From a virus (taxonomy: Duplodnaviria > Heunggongvirae > Uroviricota > Caudoviricetes): a DNA stretch of 7,842 nucleotides. Position numbers and translations under genes: made by a program. Location: IMG/VR virus record IMGVR_UViG_2541047931_000013; one strand, given 5' to 3'. Shown one piece after another: positions 1 through 4,431 of the stretch. The notes below the pieces were generated by a model. That model was not told where the DNA came from, ran no database searches, and was given only the letters and a program-made list of their open reading frames with translations. Each line of letters starts with the position of its first letter. Within the stretch, counting starts at the first letter, position 1.

Positions 1-651
1 GTGAACAACATCTTGAGAAAATCGCCAATCGAACGGCTTTGTTCATCTGTATCGATTACCCCTCATGAAATGGCTGTGGCCTTGGCTGGCCTAAACCCAT
101 CTATGCGCATTAGCGATGTGCCTGAGGAAAATTTCGAATATGTCGATTTTGTCAGAACTCATCTTGCCAGAGCTATCAAGGTGTACAGAGGTGAAAAAAC
201 TAGTAAAGACGAGCCTTGCCATGCCCTTGATATTTTCTTAGCTTCTTACCCATTTATTGACACAAATACACCAGAAATAATTGTTCAGAAAATATCAGAA
301 GCGATTGATGATTTGCGTGGCACCAAGGGCTGGGAAGAAAAAGCCCGAAACCTTGGAGGACTCCAGTTAGTAAACTACATCAAAGAAACCAACCGCAGCG
401 GACGTGGGCAGCATAGAAAGCAGGATGAGGAAAACGGGACAATGAAAATGATGGGGTTGATAGTACATCTGCTGATAAAAAAATCAGGCTCATCTTCCTA
501 CATCCAAAATGGGAAACCTAATCGCACAGCTATATACCGTGACATAGAAACCTTAATCAAGGATGAAGGGATATCCCATAAAGGAATAGCAAAAGCCACA
601 TTCCTAGAAAAAATCTCACGGGCTTTATTAGCTGTCCACGATCTCGACTAA
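1..651 (+). CDS. hypothetical protein, low-GC cargo gene; 5' end probably lies outside the window
   Basis: ORF open from base 1 (GTG) to TAA at 649-651. Sample 60-nt lines hand-count at roughly 30-40% GC versus about 55-63% in the helicase gene. No family recognised by eye. The position upstream of alpA matches the variable cargo slot of integrative islands. Confidence 0.5.
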   Translation: MNNILRKSPIERLCSSVSITPHEMAVALAGLNPSMRISDVPEENFEYVDFVRTHLARAIKVYRGEKTSKDEPCHALDIFLASYPFIDTNTPEIIVQKISEAIDDLRGTKGWEEKARNLGGLQLVNYIKETNRSGRGQHRKQDEENGTMKMMGLIVHLLIKKSGSSSYIQNGKPNRTAIYRDIETLIKDEGISHKGIAKATFLEKISRALLAVHDLD

Positions 652-1123
652 TCACTTTTCACGCCCCTCCAAAGCAATGGCGGGGCATTACCTGTTTACC
701 CATCTCCACCAGCATAGATAATTCTATGCCTAGCCATTGCTATATCTGTTCGGCTTAGTTCATCTGTAATCACCCCATCTCTAAAAGATACGCCAGCTAT
801 CATTAGCCATTTTAAGCCATCATGAGCCATTATAAACCGACTCAACCAATTGAATAATAAAAGATAAAAGGAAATGTAAAAACATGATGAATGACGATGA
901 AAGATATAACTCTTTGATAAAACAATGATTTTTTTAAACTGGTAACTAATTGAAAATAAAGAAAATAATTATCCCACCTGCATTTGCAATCTTTCAGTGG
1001 ATCGGTATTTTTTCAATAGATTTATAATTTCTTTCAATAGATTCTAGTCTTAATAGAAATACTGTATGGGCAACCACTAAACTTTAAGTAACTTCATGAG
1101 CTATCAGAGAGGTTACTAGAGAT
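652..1123. promoter_or_regulatory. AT-rich non-coding control region upstream of the alpA-like gene
   Basis: About 470 bp with no convincing ORF. Four AGC(C/T)AT repeats at exact 10-bp phasing (795-800, 805-810, 815-820, 825-830). Perfect -10 hexamer TATAAT at 1023-1028, flanked by the 12-mer TTTCAATAGATT at 1011-1022 and 1032-1043. SD GAGAGG at 1107-1112 ahead of the ATG at 1124. Confidence 0.4.
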
Positions 1124-1342
1124 ATGACAGCACACAAGCCAGCATCATCAGCTATCCCAACAACTGGATACATCCGTCGCTTTCGCATGCCGGAATTGCT
1201 AGGTGTTTCACTGCCTACTATTGATAGATGGGTTAAAAATGGCACTCTTCCACGCCCAGTGAAGCTAACAGATAACGTGACTGCGTTTGATGCGGTGGAA
1301 ATTAATAACTGGCTGGCAGAACGCCGAAACACATCAGCCTGA
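1124..1342 (+). CDS. alpA: AlpA-family phage transcriptional regulator / excisionase-like (winged-helix) protein
   Basis: 72-aa product with the motif IRRFRMPELLGVSLPTIDRWVKNGTLPRPVKL...DAVEINNWLAER, typical of the AlpA/Vis family. SD AGAGGT lies 10 nt upstream. Size and position are typical for island regulators. Confidence 0.8.
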   Translation: MTAHKPASSAIPTTGYIRRFRMPELLGVSLPTIDRWVKNGTLPRPVKLTDNVTAFDAVEINNWLAERRNTSA

Positions 1343-2851: not shown

Positions 2852-3401
2852 ACCTGTCTTTTATGCCGGTCGCACTGAAATCTCTGTCATTAAATTCGAT
2901 GACATTCAGGTGCGCATAGTGAGTATCAACGGCGAGCCGTGGTTTGTTGGCGCTGATGTGTGTGCCGCGCTGGAAATCAGCAATGTTACTGATGCCGTTT
3001 CAGTTCTGGATAACGATGAGGTAATGACCCTAGCTTTAACCGAGGGTCATTCCGGTAAGCGTGGTGGTGCCAGAAGCTGGAATGTTGTCTCTGAATCAGG
3101 TTTCTACAAACTGATCGCCCGCAGCCGTAAAGCTTCCACACCAGGCACATTTGCGCACCGTTTCAGTAACTGGGTATTCCGCGAGGTGATTCCTTCAATC
3201 CGCAAAACGGGGGGTTATGGTGTTCCGTTTGCCATGCTGAATGATTTCAGTAAACGTCAGGCTGCATATCAACAGGAAGCCAGCAAACGCGGTTACAGGT
3301 TACAGCAATGCAAAGAGGCAAAAGATGCACTGGAACGAGAAGAGCGGGCGCTATGGCGTAAATATCAGCCTGATTTTCTGGAGGGTGAAAGCAATGTGTA
3401 A
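2844..3401 (+). CDS. Bro-N domain protein (phage antirepressor-like)
   Basis: VIKFDDIQVRIVSINGEPWFVGADVCAALEI...FYKLIARSRKASTPGTFAHRFSNWVFREVIPSIRKTGGY is the Bro-N signature. SD GGAGGTG lies 7 nt upstream. The ATG overlaps the previous stop. Confidence 0.75.
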   Translation: MRKPVFYAGRTEISVIKFDDIQVRIVSINGEPWFVGADVCAALEISNVTDAVSVLDNDEVMTLALTEGHSGKRGGARSWNVVSESGFYKLIARSRKASTPGTFAHRFSNWVFREVIPSIRKTGGYGVPFAMLNDFSKRQAAYQQEASKRGYRLQQCKEAKDALEREERALWRKYQPDFLEGESNV

Positions 3402-4431
3402 CGATCCGAACGTTACAGAAAGAAAAAGCGCCCCGTTGCTGGATAACAGGCAAAACAAAGGCGACCGGGATAGGTCGCCAGTGGGAACAAAGGAAATCAA
3501 ACGCATCGCCAACAATGCCAGATTTGCGGCTGGTGGGCAATGTGATCAGTGTGCTGGCTTGCTGGTGGGCTATTCCTGCTCTTTAGCATCGCCATACTGC
3601 GATGTTTTCCAGGTATGCGATTCCATTTTTGTGCGCCTGTACTCTTTTAAGAACTTCTCAAGGACAAACGCACATGGCGCAAATCTTTCCTGTTCTTGTT
3701 CGCTTACCGCATTTTTGCGTTGTTTTTTCCTGGATGAGGATAATTTCTTTAATGATTTGTCAGTCATCGTAGATACCTGTAACCCTGTGCGCCACAGTTC
3801 ACCGCACCACGGCGCTGGTGATGGTTACTCCTGCTCTTTGGCCTTCCGGCGCTGTTCATATTTTAATTTGCGTCCACAGGCATCTAAGACCCATGCGGAA
3901 AAATTAGCACTAGGATTAGTTAATTTTTCTTGTTCAACACTGGCATCAATCCCATCTATAAGCTCGTGCGGGAATCGAATATTTTTCTTTGCTGATTTGT
4001 TGTTTGTGTTTCCGCTAGACATTGGTACACCTCACTTAAATGGATTTGATGGGCGCACACAATACAGCAAAAAAAGTGAGAAGTTAAGTATTGACATGTG
4101 CGCACACATGATTTTAATCTGTGCGCACAGTTTGGGTTGCATTGCTCAAATTAAGCAACGCCCCGCAGTGCTCGCAACACATGCAGGGCGTCTAACCACC
4201 AACGATAGAAAGCGTATCGAGGTAGCTATGTTAAATCATACCACACACCCGCAAGGGCGGGACTCGCACAACCTGAATAAATACATCTGGCGTTTTATCG
4301 CCCTGAGCACCGCACAACCACGCGTAATACACATCGAGGCCGCCAGCGAACAGGAAGCCCGTCAGCAATCCCCGGCTGGCTGCGTGATGGTATTTACTGC
4401 CCGCATCCGTCAGGGGGAATACTATGCGTGA
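3394..4431 (+). CDS. alternative model: long + strand ORF (345 aa), possibly a shadow of - strand genes; mutually exclusive with the - strand small ORFs and with the 4228 start
   Basis: ATG at 3394 with SD GGAGGG 8 nt upstream, overlapping the Bro-N stop (ATGTGTAA). Frame open for 345 codons. The product is about 5% Cys and F/S/L-rich in its middle part, which looks like antisense translation of K/E/A-rich coding. Confidence 0.25.
   Translation: MCNDPNVTERKSAPLLDNRQNKGDRDRSPVGTKEIKRIANNARFAAGGQCDQCAGLLVGYSCSLASPYCDVFQVCDSIFVRLYSFKNFSRTNAHGANLSCSCSLTAFLRCFFLDEDNFFNDLSVIVDTCNPVRHSSPHHGAGDGYSCSLAFRRCSYFNLRPQASKTHAEKLALGLVNFSCSTLASIPSISSCGNRIFFFADLLFVFPLDIGTPHLNGFDGRTQYSKKSEKLSIDMCAHMILICAHSLGCIAQIKQRPAVLATHAGRLTTNDRKRIEVAMLNHTTHPQGRDSHNLNKYIWRFIALSTAQPRVIHIEAASEQEARQQSPAGCVMVFTARIRQGEYYA
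3445..3479 (-). terminator. putative Rho-independent terminator for - strand transcripts
   Basis: Perfect 7-bp GC-rich stem GGCGACC (3460-3466) / GGTCGCC (3473-3479) with 6-nt loop. On the - strand it is followed by UUUGUUUUG. No T-tract on the + strand side. Confidence 0.4.
3570..3767 (-). CDS. small basic protein (65 aa), paralog B of a tandemly duplicated pair; possible DNA-binding protein
   Basis: ATG at 3767-3765 with AGGT 7 nt upstream. C-terminal AKEQE shared with the 3825-4022 product. An interrupted inverted repeat CTGTG-CGC-CACAG (3785-3797) lies just upstream. Confidence 0.35.
   Translation of the reverse strand: MTDKSLKKLSSSRKKQRKNAVSEQEQERFAPCAFVLEKFLKEYRRTKMESHTWKTSQYGDAKEQE
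3825..4022 (-). CDS. small protein (65 aa), paralog A; putative ribbon-helix-helix-like repressor divergent from the replication operon
   Basis: ATG at 4022-4020 with GAGGTG SD 5 nt upstream. KNIRFPHELIDGID...NFSAWVLDACGRKL has a strand-helix-helix layout resembling CopG/Arc-type proteins. Candidate -10 TATTGT / -35 TTAACT on the - strand at 4059-4064 / 4082-4087. Confidence 0.4.
   Translation of the reverse strand: MSSGNTNNKSAKKNIRFPHELIDGIDASVEQEKLTNPSANFSAWVLDACGRKLKYEQRRKAKEQE
4053..4130. promoter_or_regulatory. back-to-back divergent sigma70-like promoters overlapped by palindromic operator-like sites
   Basis: + strand: -35 TTGACA (4091-4096), 16-bp spacer, -10 TTTAAT (4113-4118). Perfect palindromes TGTGCGCACA (4097-4106, in the spacer) and CTGTGCGCACAG (4119-4130, over the predicted start). 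Half-site GCGCACA at 4053-4059 overlaps the predicted - strand start. Confidence 0.5.
4228..4431 (+). CDS. small protein (67 aa), first gene of the replication operon; possibly Icd-like (unverified recollection)
   Basis: ATG at 4228 with SD GAGGT 4 nt upstream. Product MLNHTTHPQGRDSHNLNKYIWRFIALSTAQPRVIHIEAASEQEARQQ... has ordinary composition. Its stop overlaps the next start. About 100 nt downstream of the predicted + promoter. Confidence 0.45.
   Translation: MLNHTTHPQGRDSHNLNKYIWRFIALSTAQPRVIHIEAASEQEARQQSPAGCVMVFTARIRQGEYYA

Follow-up and report, generated by a model that had tools for sequence, protein, structure and literature searches.

This report concerns a 7,842-nucleotide stretch of viral DNA (IMG/VR virus record IMGVR_UViG_2541047931_000013), here called the window, and in particular the open reading frame (ORF) of 216 codons at its very start, ORF216, together with the DNA that separates it from alpA. 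Judged by its integrase, AlpA, primase module and size, the carrier of ORF216 is a satellite of the Gram-negative phage-inducible chromosomal island (PICI) or capsid-forming PICI (cf-PICI) type. In Escherichia coli GF4 the island is flanked by yicC and dinD and spans about 20 kb, in which no tail or lysis gene is recognisable. Its left end is occupied by an inward-facing P4-type tyrosine integrase of 422 amino acids (Arm-DNA-bind_3, Phage_int_M and Phage_integrase domains), the remainder of which lies beyond the left end of the window. The gene alpA follows int in the same direction, and the window also holds a replication module with a DUF927 protein and a single-stranded DNA-binding protein (SSB). 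The features on which the argument turns are these.

1–651, plus strand: ORF216 coding sequence, 216 amino acids, WP_001059729.1; the evidence is integrase coupling, selection and an AlphaFold2 model
652–990, no strand: element-specific part of the AT-rich spacer, unconserved between alleles
992–1060, plus strand: four-motif array, TTCAATRGAWT-like, conserved across integrase, ORF and AlpA types
992–1002, plus strand: motif M1, TTTCAGTGGAT
1011–1022, plus strand: motif M2, TTTCAATAGATT
1032–1043, plus strand: motif M3, TTTCAATAGATT
1050–1060, plus strand: motif M4, TTAATAGAAAT
1055–1083, plus strand: putative alpA promoter, with a −35-like AGAAAT (1055–1060) in M4, a 17-nt spacer and a −10 hexamer TAAACT (1078–1083)
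1124–1342, plus strand: alpA, an AlpA-family master activator (PF05930, Phage_AlpA) and the presumed target of the cassette
1–1087, no strand: swappable cassette of ORF216, spacer, array and promoter, whose left edge is at −24 relative to window position 1, within the 3′ end of int

ORF216 and its coupling to the integrase

Is ORF216 a gene, and where does it begin? RefSeq holds an entry with the same limits (WP_001059729.1, ‘hypothetical protein’). The GTG start (positions 1–3) overlaps the TGA stop of the integrase (positions 2–4) by 4 nt, as aTGTGA, and in the source genome sequence a Shine–Dalgarno element, GGAGG, stands 5 nt upstream of the GTG. The junction recurs elsewhere: among 24 loci with an integrase the overlap is 4 nt in 15 and 1 nt in two, the remainder having a gap of 2 nt (one locus) or of 29–30 nt (six loci). 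The homologues are of steady length, 212–219 amino acids (235 in Yersinia). Between ORF216 alleles of 68–82% identity, the non-synonymous divergence (dN) is 0.12–0.34 and the synonymous sites are saturated. We conclude that ORF216 is a real gene under purifying selection, and not a chance ORF, because dN is low against the saturated synonymous sites. It appears, moreover, to be translationally coupled to the integrase and co-transcribed with it, and would then be expected to be made whenever the island is quiet in the chromosome. The first 1,120 bases of the window recur at 99% identity or better in 112 E. coli records (megablast; 112 of 5,426 complete genomes).

These results bear on an initial annotation of the window. 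The 216-codon ORF it had placed at 1–651 coincides with the RefSeq limits. Its suggestion that the frame might continue upstream does not hold, given the GTG with its Shine–Dalgarno element, the overlap with the integrase stop, and the preservation of both length and junction among homologues. It had put the GC content of the ORF at 30–40%, far below the replication genes; the ORF does lie below the primase region (0.52–0.59), but its own GC content is 0.43 (0.41–0.44 across 300-nt windows). Only the spacer reaches 0.30–0.34. The AT-rich spacer of about 470 bp is as described: it runs for 472 bp (652–1123) at a GC content of 0.34, with a minimum of 0.30. In 24 of 24 loci the ORF216-family gene lies 5–16 GC points under its own integrase.

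A degraded remnant, or an open frame arising by chance, would account for the missing annotation and the missing known domain, and has nothing more specific in its favour. We give it virtually no credence. It is refuted by the constant length of the family, by a dN far below a saturated dS and by a confident structural model, to which the near-identity of the 112 records can be added.

What kind of protein is encoded? Neither ORF216 nor any of 22 family members scanned singly matched Pfam, NCBIfam or PADLOC (the last, for ORF216, at E up to 1), and sequence and profile searches of the PDB with ORF216 were equally without a match. The AlphaFold2 model (mean predicted local distance difference test score 88.8) is all-alpha, with nine helices, and leaves a conserved basic loop, residues 133–138, disordered. 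No structural neighbour of this model was found; it is a fold without a solved relative. We found no enzymatic motif in this small all-alpha protein. The family thus remains unrecognised, as the initial annotation had it, and no housekeeping or phage structural family emerged. The sole match was to PHROG 30524, a family without known function, and it covers nearly the full length of ORF216 (E 3e-34, residues 11–209 to profile positions 14–213 of 220). Its members probably come from satellites deposited as phages, an example being vB_KppS-Ant, an element that was recovered from an induced lysate.

The family is small. A single-sequence search returned 19 clusters at 90% identity and a profile search 67; an exhaustive profile search of 1.84 billion representatives gave 34 clusters at 50% identity. 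Its named members come from Enterobacterales only (E. coli including O157:H7, Klebsiella, Salmonella, Yersinia, Erwinia and Pantoea), and nearly all have 206–241 amino acids. The conserved segments are an N-terminal ITxxExALAL.GLNP, TPE, LGG, a basic SGRGxHRKxDE loop and a C-terminal IYxDI...IS.KG..KSTFY.K; conservation is highest at residues 21–30, 131–160 and 191–200 and lowest at 61–70. Helix–turn–helix matches, all sub-threshold and without a Pfam domain, fall mostly at residues ~190–213. A kinship with AlpA was considered and dismissed: hhalign of the ORF216 profile against the elements’ own AlpA proteins gave a probability of 1.15%. One family member of 240 amino acids from a JGI metagenome (P0018) is fused to the helix–turn–helix domains of an insertion sequence (IS)-type transposase (PF13384, PF01527); it covers only 57% of ORF216 and looks like an IS-disrupted copy.

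The array upstream of alpA

The order int, ORF216 homologue, spacer, AlpA-type regulator and, further on, primase was found in 27 of the 28 loci examined. It holds in L001–L025 (L numbers denote our loci), which include genomes, viral contigs and records deposited as ‘phage’ or ‘plasmid’; in two of these the contig or record ends before the regulator gene is complete. The same int–ORF216–AlpA order is seen in O157:H7, in a misassigned 655-kb record and in Yersinia (L071, L072 and L075). The distance from ORF216 to AlpA is 275–590 bp, with one case of about 1.8 kb. Several of these elements encode capsid, portal and terminase and are thus capsid-forming PICIs.

ORF216 keeps its position whichever of three unrelated integrase types, and whichever of three AlpA types, it accompanies. 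The integrases of L006 and L008 are 85–90% identical to the one studied here, and their ORFs 32–36% identical; allele group B of the ORF occurs with two integrase types (~26% identical) and two AlpA types (11–14% identical); and elements that share both integrase type and AlpA type may have ORFs down to 30% identical. The modules of these satellites reassort.

Such reassortment bears on one explanation of the coupling to int, namely that ORF216 is a cofactor of the integrase that acts architecturally, or on directionality, when the element integrates or excises. The 4-nt overlap in 15 of the 24 loci, and the near-abutment in the others, would suit it, for they suggest co-expression in a fixed ratio. 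Yet the ORF alleles reassort freely with integrase types (L006, L008 and allele B), a 96%-identical integrase works in E. coli G749 without ORF216, directionality is normally the role of AlpA (PMC10111431, PMC11773190), and the array described below is about 2 kb from attL. We regard a cofactor as improbable.

Within the spacer only one block is common to all elements compared, and this is the array, some 65–135 nt upstream of the regulator start codon. Over about 70 nt it is 70–80% conserved despite integrases that are ~25% identical, ORF216 alleles ~30% identical and AlpA types 11–24% identical. The motifs are spaced ~20 nt apart. The window contains seven matches to the motif where 2.3 are expected, and four of them are clustered at 992–1060. 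The tail of M3 and M4 also supply the arms of a palindrome, TTCTA (1042–1046) and TAGAA (1054–1058).

How faithfully does the array accompany the gene? A 36-nt degenerate pattern spanning motifs 2–3 found 41 loci in IMG/VR. An ORF216-family gene ends 236–547 nt upstream in 32 of them (in one, 1,740 nt); two are genuine arrays cut by the end of the contig, and seven are chance matches without flanking motifs or satellite context. In metagenomes the same pattern found 60 loci, of which 26 are genuine arrays, all with an ORF216-family gene 233–487 nt upstream, the rest being four genuine arrays on truncated sequence and 30 chance matches. Wherever upstream sequence suffices, then, genuine arrays follow an ORF216-family gene, in 58 of 58 loci; and no pattern match without such a gene has the flanking motifs. 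The array is present with the L006, Yersinia and O157 alleles. It is absent upstream of alpA in the PICIs without ORF216 that we examined (EcCICFT073, EcCIMP1, E. coli G749 and PKF11). The exceptional distance of 1,740 nt, against the usual ~500 nt, belongs to a vB_KppS-Ant-like locus (L039, 819–2559) and suggests an insertion into the spacer.

Downstream of the array, 17 nt beyond the T[GA]GAA[ATC] of motif 4, a TAnnnT is found without exception in 13 diverse arrays. It would form, with a weak −35 inside M4, the promoter of alpA, with a predicted transcription start near 1090. A scanner for consensus promoters and terminators did not list this promoter and returned nothing above chance.

Other identities for the array were considered and set aside. 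As to an RNA element, the window contains no Rfam family, and the array block shows neither conserved RNA structure nor covariation. Mimicry of a helper promoter finds no counterpart, since 50,697 phage records hold no related array except that of the satellite vB_KppS-Ant. The consensus of integration host factor (IHF) leaves some positions unconstrained; the motif contains TCAANNNNTT, yet has an invariant G and A at those very positions, unlike an IHF site.

The rest of the spacer carries repeats of another kind. Just past the ORF216 stop there is an imperfect inverted repeat (673–688 / 726–741), and at 795–834 a tandem repeat of 10-nt period, AGCCATnAnn, occurs four times. All int-to-alpA spacers compared (the window, L004–L010, L018, L020, L071 and L075) have exact repeats of 10-nt period whose sequence is element-specific; GTTCA-type 10-nt repeats are common to all type II AlpA elements, whatever the ORF216 allele, and EcCICFT073, which lacks ORF216, has similar ones (xxAACAACxx, five times; L067, 7180–7245). 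These repeats are more likely sites for an AlpA- or excisionase-type protein than for ORF216.

An exchangeable cassette and its possible role

If gene and array belong together, are they also replaced together? E. coli G749 has an island at the same yicC site, and is 96% identical to the studied island from yicC to window position −24 and again from 1088 through alpA. Between these points 1.11 kb has been exchanged for 1.06 kb carrying an unrelated gene of 293 codons (WP_001705540.1; L069, 3050–3931 in G749, and L070, 3050–3931 in PKF11), and the replaced block ends exactly at the inferred transcription start of alpA. Because the boundaries of the swap are clean at −24 and 1088, we conclude that ORF216, spacer, array and promoter are one exchangeable cassette. 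The 293-residue protein has no match in Pfam or PADLOC and no homology to ORF216. In G749 and PKF11 a terminator-like hairpin follows its gene, only ~105 nt before alpA.

The swap also tells which proteins the array does not serve. The integrase and alpA of G749 are 96% identical to those of the studied island and are kept there without the array, and the recognition helices of the three AlpA types differ; neither this integrase nor this AlpA is therefore the partner of the array. Integrase arm sites and AlpA sites are rejected on the same grounds, the array being shared by three unrelated types of each.

What occupies the slot between int and alpA does differ from one related island to another, as the initial annotation had supposed: besides the contents of G749 and PKF11, a small ORF occupies it in EcCIMP1, and in EcCICFT073 it is empty, alpA following directly after int. 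Its picture of loose AT-rich cargo finds no support in a gene that is coupled to int, keeps its position in 27 of 28 loci and is inherited and replaced with an array. A defence function, which it had mentioned for such slots, is likewise unsupported: PADLOC gave no match, and what looks like the accessory zone of the island is at the opposite end, outside the window.

The cargo explanation can nevertheless be put in a stronger form. ORF216 might be an accessory gene (for anti-phage activity, helper interference or superinfection exclusion) expressed from the integrase operon, and the array simply the form that the alpA promoter takes there, tied to the gene by proximity. Unrelated genes do occupy the slot in related islands, the GC content of the ORF is below that of the genes around it in each of 24 loci, its alleles are highly divergent, one subfamily (the P0053 type) lacks the array, and satellites are known to carry defence genes (background cited in PMC13612085). 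But proximity does not readily explain a strict two-way co-occurrence with the array that persists down to ~30% protein identity, with the DNA between them scrambled, nor a block that is replaced as a unit up to the inferred start of alpA transcription. The protein is small, all-alpha and without enzymatic motif or PADLOC match, and the large operon of unknown function is at the other end of the island. We consider cargo unlikely, although the most probable of the alternatives weighed here. ORF216 is more likely an as yet undescribed on/off regulator of the satellite than random cargo.

What, then, might ORF216 regulate? In Gram-negative PICIs helper phages induce AlpA, which acts as the master activator (PMC6092414, PMC11773190), and uncontrolled AlpA is toxic (PMC6092414). 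According to the founding paper, it was unclear whether these islands have a global repressor, and the phage inducer had not been identified (PMC6092414). The literature we searched contained no later paper that settles this repressor/inducer question, and none on the ORF216 protein or on a gene of such a role. We tentatively propose, at somewhat less than even odds, that ORF216 is a regulator of alpA, and probably its repressor. ORF216 would be the protein half, and the four-motif array on the alpA promoter the DNA half, of a self-contained cassette. Made from the integrase operon, the protein would bind the array, where M4 and the palindrome overlap the −35; so bound, it would keep alpA off, and hence the excision and replication of the satellite. 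A signal from the helper phage would remove it and release alpA. Contacts to DNA may be made by the conserved segments at both termini and by the basic SGRGxHRK loop, the poorly conserved middle helices may form a sensing surface, and the deep divergence of the alleles may reflect different helper specificities. The comparisons show that the gene is complete, coupled to int and conserved, that it co-occurs with the array and that the two behave as a cassette; that the protein binds DNA, which way it acts on alpA and that it senses a helper is our inference. On this reading gene and array together would be a satellite induction switch whose protein belongs to an uncharacterised family.

The opposite sign has its own merits. 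As an activator or helper sensor, ORF216 would bind M1–M3 above the weak −35 and activate alpA on a helper signal, or counter silencing of the spacer. The −35-like hexamer is poor (AGAAAT/TGGAAA), three motifs lie upstream of it ~20 nt apart on one face of the helix, helper phages turn alpA on in known Gram-negative PICIs (PMC6092414, PMC11773190), and a spacer GC content of 0.30–0.34 is typical of silenced DNA. An activator that is already expressed with the integrase before induction would, however, need an extra signal; the toxicity of uncontrolled AlpA (PMC6092414) favours a brake; and M4 and the palindrome overlap the −35. We judge activation a little less probable than cargo.

Several points weigh against ORF216 as a regulator of alpA in either form, or against its repressor form. 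Repressor and activator cannot be told apart from sequence. A host or helper factor could be what recognises the array, and ORF216 would then act on that factor and not on DNA. EcCICFT073 and other classical PICIs can be induced by a helper although they have no ORF216 gene (PMC6092414). The 58 array loci include many near-identical copies; 29 distinct genuine arrays were counted among the loci compared. Finally, the P0053 type, the remotest subfamily, abundant in E. coli at the smpB site, is without the array, and although it follows int, three other genes intervene before alpA.

A broader claim is possible but doubtful, and we hold it with less confidence than the regulation of alpA itself: that ORF216-family proteins act as helper-sensing master regulators in a large share of Gram-negative PICIs and cf-PICIs, binding the array at the alpA promoter, with alleles that set which helpers induce which satellite, in a cassette exchanged by recombination at the 3′ end of int and the transcription start of alpA. 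For the question of how helpers switch on Gram-negative PICIs, the cassette offers a candidate that can be cloned, one protein and ~100 bp of DNA. Of 5,426 complete E. coli genomes, at least 112 carry this one ORF216 allele. Should the alleles encode helper specificity, satellite–helper pairings would be predictable from sequence and engineered PICI ‘drones’ could be re-targeted with them. Were the regulatory reading mistaken, ORF216 would still represent a strongly conserved family of satellite proteins, uncharacterised and with a confidently modelled, unmatched fold.

The host island and known systems

A few further observations concern the island and its relatives. A 12,152-bp circular ‘non-mobilizable plasmid’ (NZ_CP148430.1; L003) carries an identical ORF216, a 99.5%-identical integrase and alpA, but replicates with another module, TOPRIM-DUF927; the record was probably assembled as a plasmid from a satellite that had excised and circularised. 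At the 3′ end of the island, outside the window, lies an operon (L073, 9417–17078, minus strand; NZ_CP172217.1, 3449416–3457077) encoding three hypothetical proteins of 843, 686 and 918 amino acids and one of 104, none with a Pfam or PADLOC match at E up to 1e-3. It looks like the real accessory zone of the island, and is a candidate for a system of a kind not yet known.

Within the window, two minus-strand ORFs of 65 codons (3570–3767 and 3825–4022) both end in KEQE. At their place the near-identical GF4 island has annotations for a hypothetical protein and a YlcI/YnfO family protein, and the 396-codon plus-strand ORF that overlaps them (3241–4431) is probably spurious. At 2108–2851 the window has an AntA-domain ORF (113 amino acids) and one of 127 amino acids without a Pfam match; GF4 has here a single ‘GIY-YIG nuclease family protein’ of 258 amino acids, and from there on the coordinates of the two differ by 33 nt. 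The island from which the window derives is therefore a slightly different variant.

How does the cassette compare with known systems? The canonical Gram-negative PICIs EcCICFT073 and EcCIMP1 share with the studied element the order P4-type int, AlpA, Bro/Rha/AntA zone, DUF927 primase, SSB, ProQ and PerC. They differ in lacking ORF216 and the array, the slot ORF of EcCIMP1 being unrelated, whereas in the studied element alpA would be driven from the cassette’s own putative promoter.

The Xis, Vis, Cox and AlpA factors also have arrays of direct repeats next to int, and the spacer carries 10-nt repeats of their kind. ORF216 itself is three times larger than these proteins, all-alpha and not a small winged helix, with no detectable relation to AlpA. 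The spacing of its array is ~20 nt against their ~10 nt, and the 10-nt repeats track the AlpA type and not the ORF216 allele.

A functional parallel may be drawn with the Gram-positive PICIs, the staphylococcal pathogenicity islands (SaPIs). There Stl is the master repressor that keeps the island off until a signal arrives from the helper phage. Like the Stl/Rpr master repressors, ORF216 stands beside int at the edge of the intergenic region controlling the excision and replication genes, and is highly divergent between elements. A candidate operator array lies at the alpA promoter and co-occurs strictly with ORF216. There is no sequence or structural homology between Stl and ORF216, and the Stl arrangement is divergent whereas ORF216 is co-directional with the gene it may regulate. 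By analogy, the proposed role would be the same: an island held silent until a protein of the helper phage intervenes.
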